Translations under genes and position numbers: made by a program | The notes under the pieces: generated by a model | Databases searched by the model: none | What the model was told of the DNA's origin: nothing | Seen by the model: only the letters and a program-made list of their open reading frames with translations | NCBI GenBank assembly: GCA_963793305.1 | Contig: CAWBZV010000005.1 | Span: forward strand, 1,408,001 to 1,472,000 | Length of the DNA stretch: 64,000 nucleotides | Source of the DNA: an uncultured Gemmatimonadales bacterium | Lineage (GTDB): Bacteria > Gemmatimonadota > Gemmatimonadetes > Gemmatimonadales > Gemmatimonadaceae | Direction: 5' to 3' | Shown here: positions 6,327 through 58,838 of the stretch, one piece after another | How positions within the stretch are numbered: position 1 is the stretch's first letter | Layout: each line of letters starts with the position of its first letter

Positions 6327-6611
6327 ATGCGTCATCCGGACCAGATCGAGGTGCAGAACGTCAACCACCCCGGGCGGATTTCAATCGTCGACGCGCGGAT
6401 GTACGTCGCGATCAAAACGGCATTCCTGGCCATCCTCCCGACGGGCACCCCGGGTCTCACGGTAGCGCAAATTCAGGAGCTGGCGAAGCATCGCTTTCCG
6501 CGCAATGTGAACGCGAGCTGGTGGGTGAAGACGGTGCAGCTCGACCTGGAGGCGAAGGGGATTATCGCCCGCGAACGGTCTTCGCCAATTCGCCTTTATC
6601 GAGTCAACTAG
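6327..6611 (+). CDS. Small hypothetical protein (resembles DUF6958 family)
   Basis: NVNHPG and WWVKTVQLDLEAKGII motifs. Confidence 0.6.
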   Translation: MRHPDQIEVQNVNHPGRISIVDARMYVAIKTAFLAILPTGTPGLTVAQIQELAKHRFPRNVNASWWVKTVQLDLEAKGIIARERSSPIRLYRVN

Positions 6612-46791: not shown

Positions 46792-47714
46792 GCCCGTTCG
46801 CCCTCCTCGTACTCTTGCTGCTGCTTGCCGTGAACGCGTGGCTGGTCACGGCCGGCACCGCGATCCGATCGGTGAGTCGGATCTGGCTCCGCCATTGGGC
46901 GCAGCAAGGCGGGCACACCGTTCCCGCCGTCTCGCTGTACCTGTCGCGGCCCGACCAGTTGCTGCTCGCCGCCGGCATCGGCCTCACGGCCACGACCGTG
47001 CTCGCCGGCGCCATCCTTGGCGGCGAGACGTCGACCCACGTCGGGTTGATCGTCGCGCTGGCGCTCGCCGGCGCCGTGATCCTCGTCGTGGGACAACTGG
47101 TCCCGCGGGCGATCGGCCGGCGGTGGGCTAAGGCTCTGGTGCCAGTCGTCGTGCCGTCGCTCCAAGCCGTGGCCGTGTTGACCGCGCCACTCCTCTGGCT
47201 CGCCCGCGCGGCGAGAGCCGGTGTCGAGCGGCCGCGGGACGTCGTGGGCAATGTCTTCCGCGACGCGCACCGCGAGGGCGTGGGACGGGTCGAGGACCAG
47301 GCGATCGTGTCGAGCGTCGTCAAGTTCTCGGACCGCGTCGTGCGCGATGTCATGACGCCGCGCGCGGACGTGTTCGCGATCAACGTCGCGATGCCATCGG
47401 CGCTCGCCGCGGACGCCATCGCGCGGGCGGCCTATAGCCGCGTGCCCGTCTACCGCGGCAGCTTCGATGACGTCGTCGGCATGGTCCATACGTTCGATGT
47501 GCTAAAGGCCAAGGCGGGCGATGCGTTGCCCGTTCGCCCCATCGCCCGCGTGGTTGCCGACGCGTCCCTCACCGATGTCATGGTCACGATGCTGCGCGAT
47601 CGCGTACACATGGCGGTGGTCACGGACGCGTCCGCCCTTAATGTTGGTCTCGTGACGCTCGAAGACCTCCTGGAGACGCTCGTCGGCGAAATCGAGGACG
47701 AGCACGACGAATGA
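46788..47714 (+). CDS. Second CNNM/CBS-domain membrane protein (no CorC domain)
   Basis: GQLVPRAI, DVMTPR, YSRVPVY, GLVTLEDLLETLVGEI. Confidence 0.85.
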   Translation: MSPFALLVLLLLLAVNAWLVTAGTAIRSVSRIWLRHWAQQGGHTVPAVSLYLSRPDQLLLAAGIGLTATTVLAGAILGGETSTHVGLIVALALAGAVILVVGQLVPRAIGRRWAKALVPVVVPSLQAVAVLTAPLLWLARAARAGVERPRDVVGNVFRDAHREGVGRVEDQAIVSSVVKFSDRVVRDVMTPRADVFAINVAMPSALAADAIARAAYSRVPVYRGSFDDVVGMVHTFDVLKAKAGDALPVRPIARVVADASLTDVMVTMLRDRVHMAVVTDASALNVGLVTLEDLLETLVGEIEDEHDE

Positions 47715-48754
47715 GCGACCGGCTGCTCGATGAGTTCCTGGCCGGCCGCCCCGCCGCGCTCGCCCGTGCCGTCAGCGTCGTCGAAAACCATCGACCCGGG
47801 TTCGACAAACTGCTGGGCGCCGTCCACAGCCGGATCGGCCGCGCCCGCCGCGTGGGCCTCACGGGCCCGCCCGGCGCTGGCAAAAGCACGCTGACCGCCC
47901 GCCTTGCCCGCGCATACCGGGAGCAGGAGCTCGGCGCAGCCGGGCTCCATCCAACCGACCAGTCGAGCAGCGCTAGCGCTGCATCGACGCGCCGCGGAGC
48001 GGCGCTCACCGTCGGCGTTCTGGCCGTAGACCCGACATCGCCGTACACGGGCGGAGCGTTGCTCGGCGACCGCGTGCGCATGGAAGCAGTGGCCTTGGAC
48101 CGCGGCGTCTATATCCGGTCGCTCGCCACGAGAGGCGCACTCGGTGGTCTCTCGGCCGCCACGCGCGAGGTCGCTGATCTCCTCGACGCGTTCGGATTCG
48201 ACCGCATCCTGATCGAGACCGTCGGCGTCGGTCAGAGCGAGCTGGAAGTCGCGCGGACCGCGGACACGATCGCCGTTGTCCTTGTCCCGGAATCGGGCGA
48301 CGGGATACAGGCGCTCAAGGCCGGCCTCATGGAGATCGCGGATGTGTTCGTGATCAACAAGGCTGACCGACCCGGCGCGGATCGGCTCAAGCGCGACATC
48401 GACACCGCGTTGCACTATCGCCCGCCGGCGGCCTGGACCCCGCCCGTGATCCCGACGGTTGGCGTCACCGGCGTGGGGCTTAGCGAGCTGCACGCGGCGC
48501 TCGATCGGCATCATCAGTATCTTGTAGAGAGCGGGACGTTGGCCGCCCGGCGCCAATCGCGCCTGCGGGAACGGGTTGTGGACGTCGTCGACCAGCGGCT
48601 CAAAGCTCGTGTCTGGGACGACCCGAGCGCCGCCGAGTGGCTCGCGGCCCGTCTGGCGCCGCTCGCGGCGGGAGAGACGACGCCGTTCGCGGTGGCCGAT
48701 GAGCTGTTGGAACGGCAGTTCAACCGAGGATCCAAGCATGACGGTCACGCATAG
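47711..48754 (+). CDS. meaB: Acyl-CoA mutase-associated GTPase MeaB
   Basis: [16 protein letters not shown]...[24 protein letters not shown]. Confidence 0.93.
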
Positions 48755-50429
48755 AACGGGATCATCGGCTACGGCTGATGACGATCGGGCCGAGCTCGAG
48801 CGCCTCCGTAAGGAAGTGGCCGCGTGGCGGGCTCAATACGCGAAGGGCGAGACTCGGGCTATCGGGTTCACCAATTCCGGTGGAGAGGTCGAGCCGCTCT
48901 ATACCGCGCTCGATGTCCCGAATGCCGACCTTGGTGTCCCCGGCGAATTCCCGTTCACGCGTGGTATCCATCCGACAGGCTATCGTGGCCGCCTGTGGAC
49001 GATGCGCCAGTTCGCGGGCTTCGGCTCAGCCCGTGACACGAACGCGCGCTACAAGTTCTTGCTCGCCCGCGGCCAGACCGGCCTCTCCGTTGCGTTCGAC
49101 TTCCCAACGTTGATGGGCTACGACTCCGACCATATTCGAGCGGAAGGCGAGGTCGGAAAGTGCGGCGTCGCGATTTCGAGCTTGCGGGACATGGAGACGT
49201 TGTTCGACGGCATCCCGCTCGACAAAGTCTCGACGTCGATGACTATCAACGGGCCCGCGATCATTCTGTTCGCGTTCTATGTCGCGGCAGCCGAACGCCA
49301 GGGTGTGCCGTCAGAGGTCCTCCGTGGGACCATTCAGAACGACATCCTGAAGGAATACATGGCCCAGCACGCCTGGGTCTACCCGGTGGAGCCGGCGCTC
49401 CGTCTGGTCGTCGATTGCTTCGAATGGGCCGCGAAGCACACGCCAAAGTGGAACACGATCTCGATCTCCGGCTACCACATCCGCGAAGCAGGCTCCACGG
49501 CCGCCCAAGAGCTCGCGTTCACCCTCGCCGACGGCTTCACGTACGTCGAGCGGGCCCTCGCGCGCGGCCTCAATGTCGATGAGTTCGCGGGCCAGCTCTC
49601 GTTCTTCTGGGACGTCCACAACGATTTCTTCGAAGAGATCGCGAAGATGCGCGCCGCGCGCCGCATCTGGGCGCGCCACATGAAAGAGCGCTACGGTGCC
49701 CGTCATCCGCGCTCATGGATGATGCGGTTCCACTCGCAGACGGCCGGCGTGACGCTGACCGCGCAGCAGCCGCTCAACAACATCACGCGCGTGGCCTACC
49801 AGGCTCTCGCCGCCGTCCTCGGCGGCACGCAGTCCCTGCACACGAACTCGATGGACGAGACGCTGGCGTTGCCCACCGAGGAAGCGGTGCAGGTCGCGCT
49901 GCGCACGCAGCAGATCCTGGCCTTCGAGACCGGTGTCCCCAACGTCGTCGACCCCCTCGGCGGCTCGTACTACATCGAATCGCTGACGGACAGCCTCGAG
50001 GCCGAGGCCGAGTCGCTGTTCGAGCAGGTGGCCGCGGTCGGTGGGGTCGTCCGCGCACTGGAGACCGGTTGGCTGCAACGCCGGATCGCCGAGTCGGCGG
50101 CTCGTCAGCAGTGGGAGCAAGAACAGCGTCGCCGGCTGACGGTTGGCGTCAATGCCTTCGAGTCGGAGAGTGGGGACGAGCTGACGATCCCGTTGCTCCA
50201 GATCGACGACACGGTGATCGAGCAGACCGCCCGGCTGGCCGCGTTGCGCGCGAATCGCGATGCCGCGCGCGCGGAACAGGCGCTCGCTCGCCTTACCGCG
50301 ACGGCCGCGACATCCGAGAACGTGCTTCCGGCGATCATCGATGCGGCCAAGGCCGATTGTACGCTCTTCGAGATCCGGAACGCCATGGAGAAGGTGTTCG
50401 GCGCGTATCGCGAGCCGATCTTTTTTTGA
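48738..50429 (+). CDS. B12-dependent acyl-CoA mutase large subunit, isobutyryl-CoA mutase (IcmA) type
   Basis: [38 protein letters not shown]; no B12 domain. Confidence 0.9.
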
Positions 50430-50989
50430 GTGGACCGCGCGGCTGTTTCGGCCAGCTCATCGGCTGCATAGTCGTTGTCGCGGCCCTCGGCGTCGCGTGC
50501 TTTGGGTTCGACGCCTACATCTTGGCTCCGTGGGCGCACGGCAGCGGGCCGTTGCTGACGCGCACATGGGTCGGCCAGTTCCAAACGCCGGAAGGCAGAC
50601 ATGGCGTGCTGGAGCTTCGACTGACGCACGTGATTACCGGTCGCCGCGGCCACGACTGGGACCGACGTGGTAGGGGACTCCTCGGCGGCACGGCCCGCTC
50701 CTGCGGTCTCGCGACCTGGCCGACCTATGATCTCGCCGGTTCGGCCAATCACTCGGCGGACAATGTGAGCATCGTGATCGCACCACCGCGCCCGGCGCCC
50801 AACGGGATGTACTTGCACGAGCTGCGCGGCTCTTGGTCAGGCGACTCCTTGCGACTCGCCGGAGTTCTCGCGGCGTATGCCGGCAACACGAGCACGTATC
50901 ACGGCGGGGCGCCCGACGAGAACCAGCCGACCCACTTTACGCTCCATCCAGGCACTGACGCCGACTTCGATCGCCTGTGCCACCAGTAG
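50426..50989 (+). CDS. Hypothetical membrane-anchored protein
   Basis: TTG overlaps the mutase stop; N-terminal hydrophobic segment. Confidence 0.55.
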
Positions 50990-51717
50990 AATGGTGGAAG
51001 CGGTATTTCGACGGGAAGTATCTCCAGGAGTACGAGCCGATCTTCTCGGCCGCCGAAGATCGCCGGGATGTCGCGCGTCTCATCGAGATGCTCCGTCTCC
51101 CGGTCGGCGCCCGGATCCTGGATGTCCCATGCGGACAAGGACGCCACGCCAGGCTGCTCGCCGAAGCCGGATTCGACGTCACGGGCCTGGACTACTCGCG
51201 CCACTTGCTGCAGCTCGCCAAAGCCGACGGATCCGGCGTCCGCTACGTCCGCGGCGACATGCGCCGGCTATCGGCGCGATGGACGGGGAGGTTCGACGCC
51301 GTCGTCAATCTCTTCACATCGTTCGGGTTCTTTCTCGACCCCGCTGACAACGTCCGGGTCGTTCGCGAATTCGCGCGGGTGCTCGCTCCCGGTGGCGTGC
51401 TCGTGTGGCACGGGGCGAGCCGGGACGGCGTGATGGCGCGGTATATCGCCAAAGATTGGTGGCAAAGCAACGACGGGACGATGATCGCCCACGAGCGCAC
51501 GTTCGATCCGCTGTCCGGTATCATGTCGGTTTACGTCCGACAGGGAGACGCGGAGCGACAGTATCGCATACGCCTGTACACGGCGACGCGTTTGGCCGAG
51601 TTGTTTGCGGCCGAAGGGTTGATTGTCGAGGAGGCATATGACGGTTGGAGCGACAGGCCGCTCGGGCGCCGGACGACGTCGATGGTGCTAGTGGCTCGCC
51701 ATTCGCCTGCGACGTAA
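50977..51717 (+). CDS. Class I SAM-dependent methyltransferase
   Basis: ILDVPCGQGRH, GLDYS, GDMR, FTSFGFF. Confidence 0.9.
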   Translation: MPPVEWWKRYFDGKYLQEYEPIFSAAEDRRDVARLIEMLRLPVGARILDVPCGQGRHARLLAEAGFDVTGLDYSRHLLQLAKADGSGVRYVRGDMRRLSARWTGRFDAVVNLFTSFGFFLDPADNVRVVREFARVLAPGGVLVWHGASRDGVMARYIAKDWWQSNDGTMIAHERTFDPLSGIMSVYVRQGDAERQYRIRLYTATRLAELFAAEGLIVEEAYDGWSDRPLGRRTTSMVLVARHSPAT

Positions 51718-51729
51718 ATTTCCAACGGG

Positions 51730-52143
51730 ATGTCCAGACCAATCCGTGTGCTGGTAGCGAAGCCGGGACTCGACGGCCACGATCGCGGCGCCAAGGTCGT
51801 CGCCGCGGCGCTGCGCGATGCCGGCATGGAGGTGATCTACACGGGCCTGCACCAGACGCCCGAGATGATCGCCACGGCCGCGGTGCAGGAGGACGTCGAT
51901 GTGGTCGGCCTGTCCATTCTGAGCGGCGCGCACATGACGCTCTTCCCGCGCGTGTTGGAGCTCCTCAAGGCCGATGGGCGCGAGGACATTCTGCTCACTG
52001 GCGGCGGGATCATCCCCAAGGACGACATGGAGTCGCTGCACAAGCTCGGTGTCGGCCGCTTGTTCGGCCCCGGGACGACGACCGGGGAGCTCGTGACGTA
52101 CATCAAGGAGTGGTTCGCCGAACGGCAGCGGCAAGAGGTGTGA
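51730..52143 (+). CDS. Cobalamin-binding mutase small subunit (IcmB-like)
   Basis: GLDGHDRG (DxHxxG), SILSGAH, GGIIP, FGPGT. Confidence 0.93.
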
Positions 52144-53723
52144 CCAGCCGCCTCCGTCAGCTCAGCGACGAGATCCGATCGCTCGACGCGCGCATTGAAT
52201 CCGGCGGTGGCCCGGACAAGATCGAGCGCCAGCATGCGCAGGGGAAGATGACGGCGCGCGAACGCGTGGCCGGTCTCACCGACCCCGGCGCGCGCTTCGT
52301 CGAGATCGGACTGCTGGTCGCGTACGACCAGTACGAGGGCCAGGCCCCGGCGGCTGGCGTCGTCACCGGCATCGGGGTCGTGCACGGCCGCGAAGTCGTC
52401 ATCGTCGCCAACGACGCGACGGTGAAAGCGGGTTCGTGGTGGCCCGAGACGATCAAAAAGATTCTTCGCGCGCAAGAGATCGCCATGCGCTGCCGCGTCC
52501 CGATCGTCTACTTGGTCGACTCCGCGGGCGTGAACCTCCCCTATCAAGGCGGAGTCTTCCCGGGTCAATACGGCGCGGCGCGGATTTTCTACTACAACTC
52601 GATCATGCGGCACTATCTCCGCGTGCCGCAGTTCGCCGCGGTGATGGGACCCTGCATTGCTGGCGGCGCCTATCTGCCGGCGTTGTCCGACGTGATCATC
52701 ATGGTGAAGGGCACATCCTTCATGGGACTCGGCGGGCCGAACCTCGTCGAGGGCGCAACCGGGCAGTTGGTCGACTCCGAGAGCCTCGGCGGCGCGACGA
52801 TGCACACGTCAGTCAGCGGCGTTGCCCATTACATAGCGGATAACGACGCGGCGTGCCTCACGCACTTGCGTGCGCTGATCGACCGTCTCCCGCCGTCTGT
52901 TGTGTCAGCCGGCGGTGCGGTGCAGCCGCGCGACGCCAAGATCCTCTACGAGCTGCTCCCAGCCGATCACCGCATGTCGTACGACATGATCCCGGTCCTC
53001 AAGGCGATCGTCGACGATGGCCAGCTGGATGAGTTCCAAGCCGATCTCGCGCGCGAGCTGATTTGCGCTGACGCCCGCCTCGGCGGGATGCCGATCGGCG
53101 TCATCGCCAATAGACGGGGTCTGATCAAGGGCCGCGAAGGCGAGAAGCCGCGGTTTGGGGGCATTATCTACGCCGAGAGCGCCGAGAAGGCGGCGTACTA
53201 TATCGACCGCTGCGACCGCGAGGGGATGCCCCTCCTGTTCGTGCAGGACGTCTCCGGCTTCATGGTCGGCCAGGAAGCCGAGGAAGAGGGAATCATTCGC
53301 GCGGGCGCCCGCTTCGTCGAAGCGATGGCCACCGCGCGCGTCCCGAAGCTCGTTCTCACCGTCAACCACGCCTCCGGCGCTGGCTACTACGCGATGGCGG
53401 GGCAGGGCTTCGACCCGGATTTCATCTTCTCCTGGCCCACGGGTCGGATGGGAGTCATGGAGGGCGAGTCTGCCGTTCGCGCCGTCCACGGCCCCGCGCT
53501 CGCCGCCGCGAAAGCCGCGGGCCGCGCACCCGCGCCGGCCGTCACCACGGCGATCGAGGGGATGCGCGAGGAATACGACACGCAACTCGACGCCCGCTAC
53601 GCCGCCGCGCGCGGGTTCGTCGACGCCATCGTGTTCCCCGAGGACACCCGCAACGTCCTCATCCTCGCGCTGCGCACCTCACGGCACAACCCGGGTCCGC
53701 ACCTCGGCCCCTTTCTGTTATGA
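52140..53723 (+). CDS. Acyl-CoA carboxylase carboxyltransferase subunit (LiuB/AtuC-like)
   Basis: [38 protein letters not shown]. Confidence 0.9.
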
Positions 53724-55054
53724 AAAAAGTCGTACGCGTAGGAGGCGGTCAGGGATTCTGGGGCGACGATCCCGACGCGCCGCGCCGCCTCGTCGAAGGC
53801 GGACCGATCGACTACCTGATGCTCGACTATCTGGCCGAAGTCACGATGTCGATTCTGCAGAAGCAGAAAGAGCGCGACCCGAAGGCCGGCTGGGCCCGCG
53901 ATTTCGTGGGCGCAGTTCAAAGCGTCCTGCCGTTTGTGGCCCGCGGTCTCAAGATCGTCGCCAATGCGGGCGGAGTGAATCCAAGAGGCTGCGCGGACGC
54001 CGTTCGCGGAGTCGCTCCGGATGTCCGCATCGGCGTCGTCACGGGCGATGACCTGCTGGGCCGCCTCGACGAATTGGTTGCCCAAGGTCACCAGCTGGCC
54101 AACATGGACACCGGTCAACCGTTGTCGACGGTCCGCGACCGGGTGCTCTCGGCGAATGCGTACATCGGGTCGGCGCCGATCGTCGAAGCGCTGCACAAGG
54201 GCGCCCAGATAGTCGTCACTGGCCGCTCGACCGACACCGCATTGACCATGGCGCCCCTCCGCCACGAATTCGGTTGGACCGCAACCGACTATGACAAGCT
54301 GGCCGCGGGAATTGTCGCGGGCCACATCATCGAGTGCGGCGCCCAGTGCTCTGGCGGCAATTGCCTCTATGAGTGGCGCGAGATCCCGGATCTCGCCAAC
54401 GTCGGCTACCCGGTCATTGAAGGCTCGCCCGATGGCTCATTCGTTGTCACCAAGCATCCGGGCACGGGCGGGCGCGTGTCGGTCCACACGGTCACCGAGC
54501 AGTTGGTCTACGAGATGGGCGACCCGCACTCATATATCACCCCTGACGTCGTCGCGGATTTCACGACGATCCGACTCGCCCAAGATGGCGAGAATCGCGT
54601 TCGCGTGTCCGGCATTCACGGCGCTCAGGCGACCGACAAGTTGAAAGTCTCGATAGCCTATCGCGCGGGATACAAAGCCGTGGGCACGTTGGTGTATGTG
54701 TGGCCCGATGCACTCGAGAAAGCCCGCGTCGCGGATCGCGTGCTGCGCGAGCGGTTGGATCGCCTCGGCCTCAAATTCGACAAGATCCTGACGGAGTTCG
54801 TCGGCGTCTCGGCCGCGCATGGCCCCCTGACGCCGTCGACGGATGCACCCGAAGTGCAGATGCGCGTCGGAGTACGAGCCGAAAACAAGGCGGCCGTCGA
54901 GGGATTTAGCCGACAGATCGCGCCACTGGTTCTGAACGGCCCTCCGAGCGTGACGGGCTTCGCGGGGGGTCGCCCGAAGGTCGAAGAAATCGTCGCCTAC
55001 TGGCCAGCGCTGATCGACAAGCGCGTCGTCCAAACCACGGTGACGATCGTCTGA
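53720..55054 (+). CDS. AtuA/DUF1446-family protein, N-terminal part
   Basis: [44 protein letters not shown]. Confidence 0.88.
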
Positions 55055-55383
55055 TGCGCATTCCTCTCATCGATATTGCGCACGCCCGATCGGGCGACAA
55101 GGGCGACACCGCCAACGTCGGCGTGATCGCCCTCGATCCAAAGTGGTACCCGGTGCTGGCGAAGTACCTGACGCGCGATCGCGTCGCCCAGCATTTCGCG
55201 GGGGTGATCACCGGCGGCGTCGATCGTTACGAATTGCCGAACCTCGGCGCGCTTAATTTCTTGTTGCACGGCGCACTCGACGGTGGCGGCACTTTGTCGC
55301 TCAAGACCGACGCGCAGGGTAAAGTCTTCTCGACAGCGTTGCTCCGCCTCGTCCTCGATATCCCGGATGCGGAGGTCCCATGA
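55054..55383 (+). CDS. AtuA C-terminal-like small protein
   Basis: AHARSGDKGD.ANVGV, LNF, D.QGK. Confidence 0.85.
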   Translation: MRIPLIDIAHARSGDKGDTANVGVIALDPKWYPVLAKYLTRDRVAQHFAGVITGGVDRYELPNLGALNFLLHGALDGGGTLSLKTDAQGKVFSTALLRLVLDIPDAEVP

Positions 55384-56147
55384 TACATGTCCGTGTAGAG
55401 CGACGGAATGACGGGACGATCGGCGTACTGACGCTGGCCCGTCCGGAAAAGAAAAACGCGCTCGACCGCGCGATGGCCGATGCACTCGTCGCGGGCCTGG
55501 CGGAGTTCAAGTCGGACCAGACCGTCCGCGTCGTCCTCCTCGCGGCCGACGGCGCCGACTTCTGCGCCGGCGCCGACCTGGCCGCGCTCGGCGCCATGAT
55601 CGATCTGGGCCCGGAGGCGCACGTCGCCGACGCCGAGTCGCTGGTGCGGGTGTTCATTGCGCTGCGCGACTTGCCCCAGCCCGTGATTGCGGCCGTACAA
55701 GGACACGCGCTCGCGGCTGGCGCGGGTCTCGCGACCGCGGCCGACATCATCCTCGCTCGCGAGGACGCGCGTTTTGGGTATCCGGAGGTCCGCATCGGAT
55801 TCGTCCCGGCTATGACGCTCCCAATGCTGCGCCTCGCCGTCGGCGAAAAGATCGCGGCCGAGCTGGTGCTCACCGGTCGCACGCTGATGCCGGCCGAGGC
55901 GCTGGCGTTGGGTCTCGTGAGCCGCGTCATTCCGAGCGCCTCGTGGGAGGAAGGGATTCGCACGACGCTCGACCGCATCGCGTCGTCGCCCACCGGGCCG
56001 GTGCGCATCACGAAGCATCTGCTCTACGCGCTCGACGATCTCACGTTCGACGACGGCTTGCAGCTGGGTGTGCAAGCCAACGCCGCGGCGCGATCGACCG
56101 AGGAGTTCAGGGCTGGCATTCGCGCGTTTATGACACGACGGCCGTGA
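55380..56147 (+). CDS. Enoyl-CoA hydratase family (methylglutaconyl-CoA hydratase-like)
   Basis: FCAGADL, FGYPEVRIGFVPA; first catalytic Glu absent (AAGAGL), as in LiuC-type enzymes. Confidence 0.85.
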   Translation: MIHVRVERRNDGTIGVLTLARPEKKNALDRAMADALVAGLAEFKSDQTVRVVLLAADGADFCAGADLAALGAMIDLGPEAHVADAESLVRVFIALRDLPQPVIAAVQGHALAAGAGLATAADIILAREDARFGYPEVRIGFVPAMTLPMLRLAVGEKIAAELVLTGRTLMPAEALALGLVSRVIPSASWEEGIRTTLDRIASSPTGPVRITKHLLYALDDLTFDDGLQLGVQANAAARSTEEFRAGIRAFMTRRP

Positions 56148-56331: not shown

Positions 56332-58838
56332 ATGAAGGTGCCTGAACTCCTCGCCCCGGCGGGGTCACTGGACGCGGTGCGAGCCGCGGTTGCCAACGGT
56401 GCCAACGCCGTCTATCTCGGCGCGGAACGCTTCAACGCCCGCGACGAGGGCGCGCAGCTCACGCTCGACGAGCTTGCCGATGCGTGCCGCCTGGCCCATG
56501 CGCGCAATGCTCGCATCTATCTGACACTCAACGTGCTGGTCAAGCCGGCCGAGCTCGCCGATGCGCTCGACTTGCTCGGCGCCGCCATCGATGCAGGGAT
56601 CGATGCGGTGATCGTCCAAGAACGTCGGCCTGATCCGCCTGATCAGTGCAGTCTATCCGTCATTGGAGATCCATGGCTCCACGCAGATGACGGTGCATGA
56701 CCCGGCCGGTGCATTGGTTCTGCGCGACCTGGGCGTTGATCGGGTGGTGCTGGCGCGCGAGAACACGCTGGCCGATGTGCAGGCGATCCATTGCGCGGTC
56801 CCTGAGCTCGGCCTCGAGACGTTCATCCACGGCGCGTTGTGCATCTCATACTCGGGCCAGTGCTTCATGTCCGGCATGATCTCCGAGCGGAGCGCCAACC
56901 GTGGCTCCTGCGCCCAGTCATGTCGCAAGGACTATGTCCTCAACGATGCCCTGACCGGCGCTACACTGGACACTGGCTACCTGATCTCGGCCCGCGATCT
57001 CGCCGCGCCCGAGTCGTTAGCCGATGTCGCTCGCTCGGGGATCGTCTGCCTCAAGGTCGAGGGCCGCAAGAAACGCCCCGAGTACGTCGCCGCGGTGACG
57101 TCGGCCTATCGCACATTCCTCGACCGCGTAGCGCGCGGCGAGACGGCCCCGGTGCACGCGGGCGACACACAGCCGCTGGTCCAGATCTTCAGCCGCGGAT
57201 TCACCCCGGGCATGCTCGGCGAGGGCGACCGTGCGGGCCGCGACTACGTGACCCGCACGCACCCTGATCATCGCGGTGTCGTCCTCGGCACAGTCGTCTC
57301 CGCGAGCGCGACTGAGCTCGTGATCGCGCTCGCCGCCGCCGTCGGCCCGATCGCGCCGGGCGATGGCCTCGCATTCGAGCCCCCAGCGGGCGCACCCGGC
57401 CAATCACTGGGTTTCGCGGTCGACAGCGTCCGCACGATCGGCTCCGGCCGTGTCGGCATCGCCACCCGCAAGCATGTCCCTGTCGGCTGGATCGCCTATC
57501 GCACCGCGCAAGCGTCACTGTTGGAGCGCGGCCGCCAAAGCGTCGCGCGCACGGCCATCCCCGCGGCGCCCAAAGTCCGACTCGAACGTCCGGCTCTTCG
57601 GCCAAGCAGGCACGCCGCTCAAGGCGATCTTCACGGCGGCCTCCGGTGCCGTCACAGGCGCTATCACAGGCGCCGTTACCGAAGCCGTCACCGTGCGCAC
57701 TGACGCTACGCTTCGCCCTGCCGAGCGGCGCGTGCTCGACGAAACGCAGCTCCGCGCACAACTCGGCCGGCTCGGCGAAACGCTCTTTGTGCTCGGCGCT
57801 CTCGACCTCGCTGGCCTTTCCGCCGGCCTGTTCCTGCCGGTCAGCGAGCTGAATCACCTGCGGCAGCAAGCGACGGAGCAACTCACGTCGATCCGCGACT
57901 GGTCGCTCGAAGCCACCCGCGCGGAACGCACCGCCGTCATATCTGCCGCCGTAGCCACTGTTCAGGCGCAGGCGCCGCAGGCGCCGCAGGCGCCGAGCGC
58001 CCACGTCCTCTCGGCCACGGTCTATCGCGTCGAAGACGCCCGCGCCGCCGCGGCCGCGGGAGCAACCGAGATCGTGTTTGACCCGTTCCTCCGCAACCCA
58101 CCGCCGCCGGCCGCGCGAATCCGCGCACTCGCCGAGGAGCTGGGCGTCCCGTTCGCGATTCGCACGCCGACGATCATTCGCCCGCCCGAACGCAAGACAC
58201 TCGACAAGTGGCTAGCCCTCGGCTTCCCGATGGTGACGGGCCACCTCGGCCTGGCCCGCGAGCTCGGCGACCGCGCGATCCTGGACTACGCCACAAATTG
58301 CTTCAACCAACACACGGCCGCCGAGTACTTCGGGTACGCCCCGAAGCGGATCGTGCTCTCGATCGAGCTGACAACCGACGAGATGGCCGCCGTCGTCGCC
58401 CCTTGGTCCGGCGCGGGCTTCGCCGCCGTGATCTATGGCCGACCCGAAGGCATGACGATCGAGCACTGCGTGCTCTCGGCCGCATTCGACCGCGAGCCAA
58501 CGACATGCCGCGACCTGTGCGTGCAAAAGCACCCAGAGGTCTCACTGACAGACCCCACGGGCTACACGTTCGCCGTGGCGACGGACAGCGCCTGCCGCAA
58601 TCGCCTCCTGCACTCGCGCCCCATCGAGGCGTCCGAGTTCCTACCCCGTCTCTGGTCAGCCGGCATTCGCTCGTACCACGCCATATTCAACGTGCCGAAC
58701 GATCCGGTCGCCGAGCTGATCGCGGGCTACGCCAGGACGCTCTCGGCCCTCGCCGCGGGCGACGCGCCGGACACGACCGCGCCTCGCCGCGCAGTGGGTA
58801 ACTCATTCACACGCGGCCACTTCGCCCGCGCCGTCTGA
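56332..58838 (+). CDS. Peptidase U32 family with DUF3656-like region (RlhA-like hydroxylation protein); +1 frameshifts near 56621 and 57585
   Basis: ELLAPAG, HGSTQM, HGALCISYSGQC, NRGSCAQSCR, KVEGR, C-terminal FTRGHF; spread over three frames. Confidence 0.85.

Follow-up and report, generated by a model that had tools for sequence, protein, structure and literature searches.

We analysed a 64,000-nucleotide stretch of the genome of an uncultured Gemmatimonadales bacterium (assembly GCA_963793305.1, contig CAWBZV010000005.1, positions 1,408,001 to 1,472,000; hereafter the window), in which nine genes lie in one run between positions 47711 and 56147. The run is a real, conserved locus made of known enzyme kinds, among them a B12-dependent acyl-CoA mutase, a carboxyltransferase, a protein of the AtuA family encoded in two parts and a crotonase-family hydratase. 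It is probably a housekeeping cluster for branched short-chain acyl-CoA compounds, in which carboxyltransferase, hydratase and AtuA form the lower leucine pathway and AtuA cuts 3-hydroxy-3-methylglutaryl-CoA (HMG-CoA), standing in for HMG-CoA lyase. By analogy with a solved relative, AtuA and its small subunit are likely to be an ATP-using HMG-CoA lyase without homology to the classical one; its proposed chemistry is specific enough to be tested, and we infer all substrates and products. The AtuA finding is stronger than the finding on the mutase.

As regards HMG-CoA cleavage itself, support comes from the complementary distribution of AtuA and HMG-CoA lyase. We sampled 201 genomes of the phylum, 184 from the class Gemmatimonadetes and 17 from other classes, the latter being excluded from the tabulated comparisons, and called HMG-CoA-lyase-like genes with NF004283 at E 1e-40. 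AtuA was present in 167 of the 201 genomes, all inside the class (167/184); the 17 from other classes yielded none. The lyase-like gene was present in 19 of the 201, that is in 5 of the 167 AtuA-positive genomes as against 14 of the 17 AtuA-negative genomes of the class. HMG-CoA lyase was not found in the source genome, where the HMGL-like matches are isopropylmalate-synthase-like. In a family-level re-draw of 221 genomes, partly overlapping the phylum sample, 207 carried the small AtuA subunit; the lyase-like gene was present in 11 of the 14 genomes without this subunit and in 7 of the 207 with it. Since these 11 genomes belong to two genera only (three of them score below the cut-off), they add no new independent events. 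The counts include the unpublished genomes G155 (both samples), G346 and G360 (family sample), and no claim rests solely on these.

When placed on a tree of the carboxyltransferase (39 chosen rows), the swap between atuA and the lyase gene takes six changes. The lyase genes occupy at least five different neighbourhoods, and replacement of atuA in place was not seen, the lyase gene standing elsewhere in all 18 regions fetched. Genomes G031, G127 and G076 have lost both parts of AtuA but keep meaB, the mutase, the B12 subunit, the carboxyltransferase and the hydratase in place. Among other AtuA-negative genomes, G041 and G111 are without this carboxyltransferase and G113 has it at a contig end. 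In three of the five genomes that carry both genes (G067, G057 and G097; regions L097, L099 and L100), the lyase-like gene lies beside isopropylmalate-dehydrogenase-like, CaiB-type CoA transferase and aconitase-like/LeuCD-like genes, which suggests that it acts on another substrate; the cluster is possibly a pathway for a branched dicarboxylic acid.

The enzymes that would handle the products were compared between the two groups of genomes. Classical HMG-CoA lyase releases acetoacetate. An enzyme that activates acetoacetate occurs in each of the 14 lyase-positive, AtuA-negative genomes (nine have ScoAB beside the lyase, eight have acetoacetyl-CoA synthetase, and some have both), whereas ScoAB and the synthetase are both missing from 76 of the 167 AtuA genomes (68 when matches under the cut-off are counted), a pattern that fits acetoacetyl-CoA as the product of AtuA. 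The synthetase search scored at most five candidates per genome, and the synthetase was dropped as a clean marker because it is too common. ScoAB was not found in the source genome. Stand-alone phosphotransacetylase (Pta), taken as Pta-like matches minus malic-enzyme fusions, is present in 153 of the 167 AtuA genomes as against 3 of the 17 without AtuA, and in none of the 14 genomes that keep the carboxyltransferase but are without atuA. Acetate kinase is present in just 30 of the 80 AtuA/Pta genomes tested (80 of the 153). Where Pta stands without acetate kinase, acetyl-phosphate has to come from some other reaction, for which AtuA is one candidate beside phosphoketolase and pyruvate oxidase, and we slightly favour acetyl-phosphate over acetate as the two-carbon product. 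The source genome itself has Pta, acetate kinase and acetyl-CoA synthetase, the last split in the assembly. Outside the phylum, five plasmid regions around near relatives of AtuA or CmlA, taken from 185 records, were compared: those of Rhodococcus, Roseovarius and Natrinema have atuA with carboxyltransferase and hydratase genes and no HMG-CoA lyase annotated in the stretch, in Tistrella only a dehydrogenase adjoins atuA, and the Klebsiella region is of the CmlAB type and lies near a fumarase gene. On the Rhodococcus plasmid a PTA_PTB gene overlaps atuA (54% identity), beside carboxylase, dehydrogenase and hydratase genes.

The chemistry proposed for AtuA comes from its homology to the citramalate lyase CmlAB. 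A model of the large subunit, built from 95 sequences with a predicted local distance difference test (pLDDT) of 96.5, matched chain A of 9erq with Z 31.4 and a root-mean-square deviation of 3.4 over 414 residues at 16% identity, the next match having Z 9.2; it also matched chain A of 9evf over its full length (E 1e-25, template-modelling score 0.79). A profile search found the same chain, named 'AtuA family protein / cmlA', at E 8.9e-14. The model of the small subunit (pLDDT 93.4) had 9erq chain B as its sole fold match with Z of at least 8 (Z 10.5, deviation 3.2 over 100 residues, 15% identity; next Z 6.7). Profile and fold searches were needed to see this relationship, since a single-sequence search of the PDB gave no match with AtuA, and an ESM Atlas search gave no usable match beyond PF07287. 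AtuA and CmlAB have AGG, GRxxD, EC and YE motifs in common. A complex of the two AtuA subunits was predicted with a score of 0.94 against 0.00 for the best control, with contact agreement of at least 95% and partner pLDDT of at least 94; the mark was reached by 116 of 157 solved pairs and 2 of 215 mismatched pairs, and the pass may reflect likeness to the solved 9ERQ complex. AtuA is fused to its small subunit in many other bacteria, and a search with a threshold of E 0.001 puts the family at 6,467 cluster representatives.

The CmlAB entries 9ERQ and 9EVF (chain A AtuA family/cmlA, chain B DUF4387/cmlB) are titled as complexes with AMPPNP and citramalate and with ADP and pyruvate, from which we infer that ATP would activate a carboxylate as an acyl phosphate. 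Besides the same predicted two-subunit folds, the two systems have in common the slot that they fill, that of a missing carbon-carbon lyase for a tertiary 3-hydroxy acid (PMC4682846). They differ in partner (DUF4387 in CmlB, PF23544 here), in sequence, and in context, mesaconate there and acyl-CoA here, where the proposed substrate is a CoA ester. The window protein is not a citramalate lyase proper: a true CmlA-like protein scores 527 bits and AtuA has the PF23544 partner. In PMC4682846 a DUF1446 gene lies downstream of mal and the fate of citramalate is described as unclear. The Cml of Raoultella planticola, from the Berg laboratory, is used in bioRxiv 10.64898/2026.01.16.699985. A literature search whose coverage excluded subscription journals found neither a primary paper on CmlAB nor one linking AtuA, HMG-CoA lyase and leucine. 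The original prediction had expected the cluster to give a context for an uncharacterised AtuA family; the context is supplied, and 'uncharacterised' is outdated now that CmlA is a solved family member.

The run comprises the following genes.

47711 to 48754, + strand: meaB, G-protein chaperone of mutases (TIGR00750, 312 bits, cut-off 241)
48741 to 50429, + strand: acyl-CoA mutase large (substrate-binding) subunit (TIGR00641, 736 bits)
50426 to 50989, + strand: hypothetical protein of 187 amino acids with a hydrophobic N-terminus (no family match)
50977 to 51717, + strand: class I S-adenosylmethionine-dependent methyltransferase (PF13649)
51730 to 52143, + strand: B12-binding small subunit (TIGR00640, 174 bits)
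52140 to 53723, + strand: carboxyltransferase of the 3-methylcrotonyl-CoA carboxylase beta type, LiuB/AccD1-like (PDB sequence scores)
53720 to 55054, + strand: AtuA large subunit (PF07287, 500 bits, above the Pfam cut-off)
55054 to 55383, + strand: AtuA small subunit, the C-part with the AtuA ferredoxin-like domain (PF23544, above the Pfam cut-off)
55380 to 56147, + strand: crotonase-family hydratase (PF00378)

A run of nine genes with overlapping or nearly abutting junctions had been seen in the letters, and the re-checked frames and coordinates bear this out: seven of the eight junctions overlap by 1 to 14 bases and the eighth is a 12-base gap. The overlapping same-strand run begins further upstream, with aspS, phoH, an HD protein, ybeY and two CBS proteins (names read off the translations, those of the CBS proteins excepted), and a scan for promoters and terminators gave no signal better than chance.

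We next addressed how far this arrangement is conserved. From the 167 AtuA genomes, 39 loci in families f1 to f8 were chosen on atuA in well-assembled genomes, a choice that favours long contigs, and 33 of 80 loci from close relatives had full flanks. The B12 subunit and the carboxyltransferase stand upstream of atuA in all 39 class-wide loci, so the gene run is not due to chance. The small AtuA subunit is present in 37, the hydratase in 33 and meaB in 29 of the 39. The methyltransferase is found in 9 of the class-wide and 26 of the close-relative loci, and the hypothetical gene in none of either set (0/39, 0/33); both are passengers of a class-wide housekeeping locus of Gemmatimonadota. The hypothetical protein has no Pfam or NCBIfam match, and its look-alikes are three unnamed clusters scoring 0.93-0.95, of which two occur most often in Acidobacteriota. 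Close relatives of the window AtuA protein come from Gemmatimonadaceae. Family f2 has two insertions, a baeRF10 release-factor-like gene between mutase and B12 subunit (L049:6835-8085) and a 950-residue gene between carboxyltransferase and atuA (L049:10172-13012). Both are retained after atuA loss, and the latter, a subtilase, was ruled out as a pathway enzyme.

By its sequence the carboxyltransferase is of the methylcrotonyl-CoA type, nearer the beta subunit of 3-methylcrotonyl-CoA carboxylase (MCC) than those of propionyl-CoA carboxylase (PCC) or geranyl-CoA carboxylase. Its highest PDB scores were to AccD1 (388), 9tps (388, named as PCC beta by its depositors), LiuB (377) and human MCC beta (340); geranyl-CoA carboxylase beta scored 286 and other PCC beta subunits at most 285. 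The genome holds just one carboxyltransferase of this type and a separate PCC-type gene. There is no dedicated biotin carboxylase (alpha subunit) beside it in the run; the two found in the genome lie at the acetyl-CoA carboxylase and PCC loci, which points to sharing with the PCC locus. From its gene position, the crotonase is likely to be the methylglutaconyl-CoA hydratase, in the role of LiuC or AtuE. Two natural fusions of AtuA, small domain and crotonase (P0235 and P0251) support the pairing of hydratase and lyase. As in the Liu pathway (LiuABCDE), a methylcrotonyl-CoA-type carboxyltransferase is followed by a crotonase; unlike it, the run has no biotin carboxylase or dehydrogenase, AtuA lies between carboxyltransferase and hydratase, and the source genome yields no counterpart of the HMG-CoA lyase LiuE and no ScoAB. 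Elsewhere the genome encodes several short-chain acyl-CoA dehydrogenases, a thiolase and a 3-hydroxybutyryl-CoA dehydrogenase. One short-chain acyl-CoA dehydrogenase, behind recQ some 22 kb downstream (G000:C5:1486217-1487389, L279), is a candidate for the isovaleryl-CoA step because several f2 genomes have a gene like it close to the cluster.

The proposed route would begin with carboxylation of 3-methylcrotonyl-CoA by the window beta subunit, with biotin carboxylase and carrier borrowed from the PCC locus, after which the crotonase would hydrate methylglutaconyl-CoA to HMG-CoA. AtuA and its small subunit, using ATP, would phosphorylate the free carboxylate and then cleave the carbon-carbon bond to give acetoacetyl-CoA and a two-carbon unit other than acetyl-CoA (acetyl-phosphate or acetate). 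Phosphotransacetylase and thiolase, encoded elsewhere, would convert both products to acetyl-CoA. A fuller version of this scheme, which we put forward tentatively and with less than even confidence, is that in most Gemmatimonadetes leucine breakdown ends with an ATP-dependent, kinase-like HMG-CoA lyase, AtuA plus its small subunit, that yields acetoacetyl-CoA and acetyl-phosphate, is coupled to Pta and bypasses free acetoacetate, and that several lineages have swapped to HMG-CoA lyase with ScoAB, losing Pta.

A number of observations weigh against assigning HMG-CoA cleavage to AtuA. Related genomes are not independent, so Fisher values overstate the association, and strongly supported branches demand only two of the six swap changes. 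In genus g4 the lyase-like gene falls under the family cut-off (190 of 246 bits). Genome G114, with carboxyltransferase and hydratase adjacent and neither atuA nor lyase found, is a true exception. At the level of the protein, 16% identity to CmlA means that substrate and products are not transferable; the small-subunit profile showed no similarity to a CmlB-like protein (0.2%); and bioRxiv 10.64898/2026.01.16.699985 gives the Cml product as acetate, not acetyl-phosphate. A review places the acetate-releasing step of Pseudomonas terpene breakdown on LiuE and not on AtuA. Among the neighbouring steps, the crotonase reached no equivalog cut-off and is not typed below family level (best PDB match 1uiy; AtuE, 4zu2, just 86 bits), the hydratase is absent from 6 of the 39 class-wide loci, and none of the acyl-CoA dehydrogenases of the genome could be assigned as isovaleryl-CoA dehydrogenase. 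On the product side, acetoacetyl-CoA synthetase is frequent among AtuA genomes too (96 of 201 genomes above the cut-off), and the Pta count depends on the threshold: with PF01515, among five AtuA-negative genomes, G031 has a stand-alone member and G145 a faint one, and when five AtuA-positive genomes scored as missing Pta were re-searched, G112 and G159 had none and two had only the malic-enzyme fusion. This looser search altered one call in each group of five. Acetate kinase is likewise absent from all 14 AtuA-negative genomes, so that the same pattern could arise if acetate metabolism had been lost in general.

The type of the mutase was examined at its two specificity positions. Codons 49011-13 (TTC) and 49365-67 (CAG) encode Phe91 in MRQFAGF and Gln209 in KEYMAQ, just as the original prediction had read them. 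In PDB alignments the human and Propionibacterium methylmalonyl-CoA mutases have Tyr/Arg in these columns and the 2-hydroxyisobutyryl-CoA mutase HcmA has Ile/Gln. Isobutyryl-CoA mutase has Phe/Gln at the Tyr89/Arg207 sites. On a quick tree of 41 chosen rows, which holds no characterised IcmA, IcmF or RcmA, the cluster copies group together as 16 Phe/Gln rows (support 99), and the window protein falls outside the Tyr/Arg clade (support 98), so that grouping with methylmalonyl-CoA mutase, put forward earlier as a refuting outcome, did not occur. An Ile/Gln, ligase-linked plasmid pair forms a separate long branch, and Xaut_5043, which we take to be a pivalyl-CoA mutase, has Leu/Asn and is distant. 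Judged by these residues and the tree, it is well supported that the window enzyme is not a methylmalonyl-CoA mutase, and it is likely to be isobutyryl-CoA-mutase-like. It has neither the Ile/Gln pair with a ligase gene of 2-hydroxyisobutyryl-CoA mutase nor the Leu/Asn pair of pivalyl-CoA mutase, and the pivalyl-CoA activity suggested for it earlier finds no support. The cluster copy of G052 has Lys in place of Gln. Streptomyces IcmAB consists of separate large and small subunits. The window enzyme shares with it the separate subunits, Phe/Gln and a MeaB; it is not an IcmF-style fusion, being three separate genes (NF045497, 348 of 1500 bits), and its small subunit and MeaB are apparently common with a Tyr/Arg large subunit. 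IcmF references sought among the longer mutase homologues were absent from the matches listed.

The second large subunit of the genome, with Tyr/Arg (G000:C14:135331-136902, L001), is 54% identical to the window mutase. It follows the fructose-1,6-bisphosphatase gene, and its surroundings hold no B12 subunit. The genome contains one full match for a stand-alone B12 subunit, that in the window, and one weak match (32%), so the window subunit is likely common to both large subunits; meaB gave a single tblastn match, the window copy, and epimerase and PCC locus were found elsewhere. Exactly two large-subunit matches occur in 172 of the 184 class genomes, and all eight stand-alone second copies examined in the class have Tyr/Arg, as do the three Streptomyces plasmid copies examined. 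In L141 (G200:C143) and L103 (G048:C25) the second mutase is a classical fused Tyr/Arg enzyme, that of G200 with a MutA-like neighbour and its own MeaB. Plasmid mutases of Marinobacter and Diaphorobacter (L289, L292) and that of L287 have Tyr/Arg with ISIAGAHV or ISVAGSHF replacing ISISGYHI; two of the three are flanked by crotonase and CoA transferase genes, and they are possibly a type for another substrate. A Val/Gln mutase on a Sinorhizobium meliloti plasmid (L290:3974-5674) is clustered with an aminotransferase, a hydratase and an AMP-binding protein.

The Phe/Gln pair might mark merely a non-carboxylated acyl-CoA, and there is perhaps one chance in a few that the mutase acts instead on (R)-3-hydroxybutyryl-/2-hydroxyisobutyryl-CoA or another substrate. 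RcmAB carries Phe at the first specificity site. The best PDB match of the window mutase is HcmA (546 bits), IcmF scoring just 297, and RcmAB is described in PMC7176365 as a distinct mutase type, the hcm/rcm genes being operonic with a gene for 2-hydroxyisobutyrate-CoA ligase. However, no such ligase gene lies within the run, the ligase-linked plasmid enzymes are the Ile/Gln pair on its separate long branch, and the genome has a thiolase/3-hydroxybutyryl-CoA dehydrogenase/acyl-CoA dehydrogenase operon for n-butyryl-CoA.

The original prediction had gone further and joined both halves of the run in one dedicated branched-acid route, the mutase making isovaleryl-CoA from pivalyl-CoA or a similar compound and feeding carboxylase, hydratase and AtuA directly. 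PMC10481361 reports two interconversions by IcmF, one between pivalyl- and isovaleryl-CoA and one between isobutyryl- and n-butyryl-CoA, and the mutase gene is near atuA here, in 22 of the 39 class-wide and in 30 of the 33 close-relative loci. The linkage expected between the two genes thus holds in part: in the other 17 class-wide loci, including every f6 and f7 locus examined, the large subunit lies elsewhere. The mutase is unchanged where atuA was lost, Phe/Gln enzymes also occur in families f11 and f12, where AtuA was not found, Xaut_5043 differs in residues and tree position, and near-universal presence suits amino-acid turnover better than a rare substrate. The B12 subunit, whose linkage never varies, has to work with both large subunits, and a dedicated pathway from mutase to AtuA is not supported. 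With linkage in only 22 of 39 loci and the mutase kept after atuA loss, the two are neighbours, not obligate partners, and a single integrated route is unlikely. The persistence of mutase, small subunit and MeaB after atuA loss also led us to reject the idea that AtuA partners the B12 mutase or reactivates it.

AtuA is also known from terpene breakdown, and the module could instead remove methyl branches from geranyl- or farnesyl-CoA, AtuA cleaving 3-hydroxy-3-isohexenylglutaryl-CoA and not (only) HMG-CoA. In PMC13689101 AtuA is named in the terpene pathway and expected to release acetate, and like the Pseudomonas Atu pathway (atuABCDEFGH, with an acetate-releasing lyase step, EC 4.1.3.26) the window sets an AtuA-family protein beside carboxylase and hydratase genes, with a proposed two-carbon product other than acetyl-CoA. 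In addition, atuA clusters on plasmids contain several dehydrogenases and hydratases. On the other hand, the window carboxyltransferase is nearer LiuB than AtuC (377 to LiuB against 286 to geranyl-CoA carboxylase) and the only one of its type in the genome, AtuA is split in two, the run has no atuB, atuG or atuH, the distribution is that of a class-wide housekeeping locus, and atuA loss is accompanied by the acquisition of HMG-CoA lyase and ScoAB, which handles free acetoacetate. We therefore consider a terpene substrate rather improbable. Least probable of all is that AtuA acts not on the CoA ester but, like CmlAB, which was solved with a free acid, on the free acid or another tertiary hydroxy acid (3-hydroxy-3-methylglutarate, citramalate), given that both neighbours of atuA are acyl-CoA enzymes and the run holds neither a thioesterase nor a CoA transferase, that free acetoacetate would need ScoAB or the synthetase, neither of which was found in 76 of the 167 AtuA genomes, and that the CmlA subgroup is distant and partnered with DUF4387.

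Several features of the source assembly, which is 92% complete and 5% contaminated, were recorded alongside. A U32 peptidase-like gene downstream of the run (56332-58838) is spread over three overlapping frames, its relatives being a single frame of about 830 residues (L040), and the split is probably due to assembly frameshifts. Both leuA (G000:C3:69387-70858) and acetyl-CoA synthetase (C5:146152-148000) are split over frames and acetoacetyl-CoA synthetase is a partial match (C5:703524-704756), which suggests indel errors. Two acyl-CoA dehydrogenase matches of equal score and frame length on two contigs (G000:C5:3439-3888 and C16:5259-5708) are likely an assembly duplicate.

The step catalysed by AtuA has been a guess since the work on the terpene pathway, and the locus makes its role testable: the candidate substrate, HMG-CoA, can be bought, ATP is the predicted cofactor, and the two products can be told apart. 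For the mutases, two B12-dependent large subunits apparently use one cofactor subunit across the class, and automatic annotation would take the Phe/Gln copy for a methylmalonyl-CoA mutase, which calls for a modest correction. If AtuA is indeed an ATP-using HMG-CoA lyase, it would be a second, unrelated enzyme that cleaves HMG-CoA, the occurrence of Pta without acetate kinase would be explained, and an apparent gap in leucine breakdown would be filled in 162 of the 184 sampled genomes of the class.

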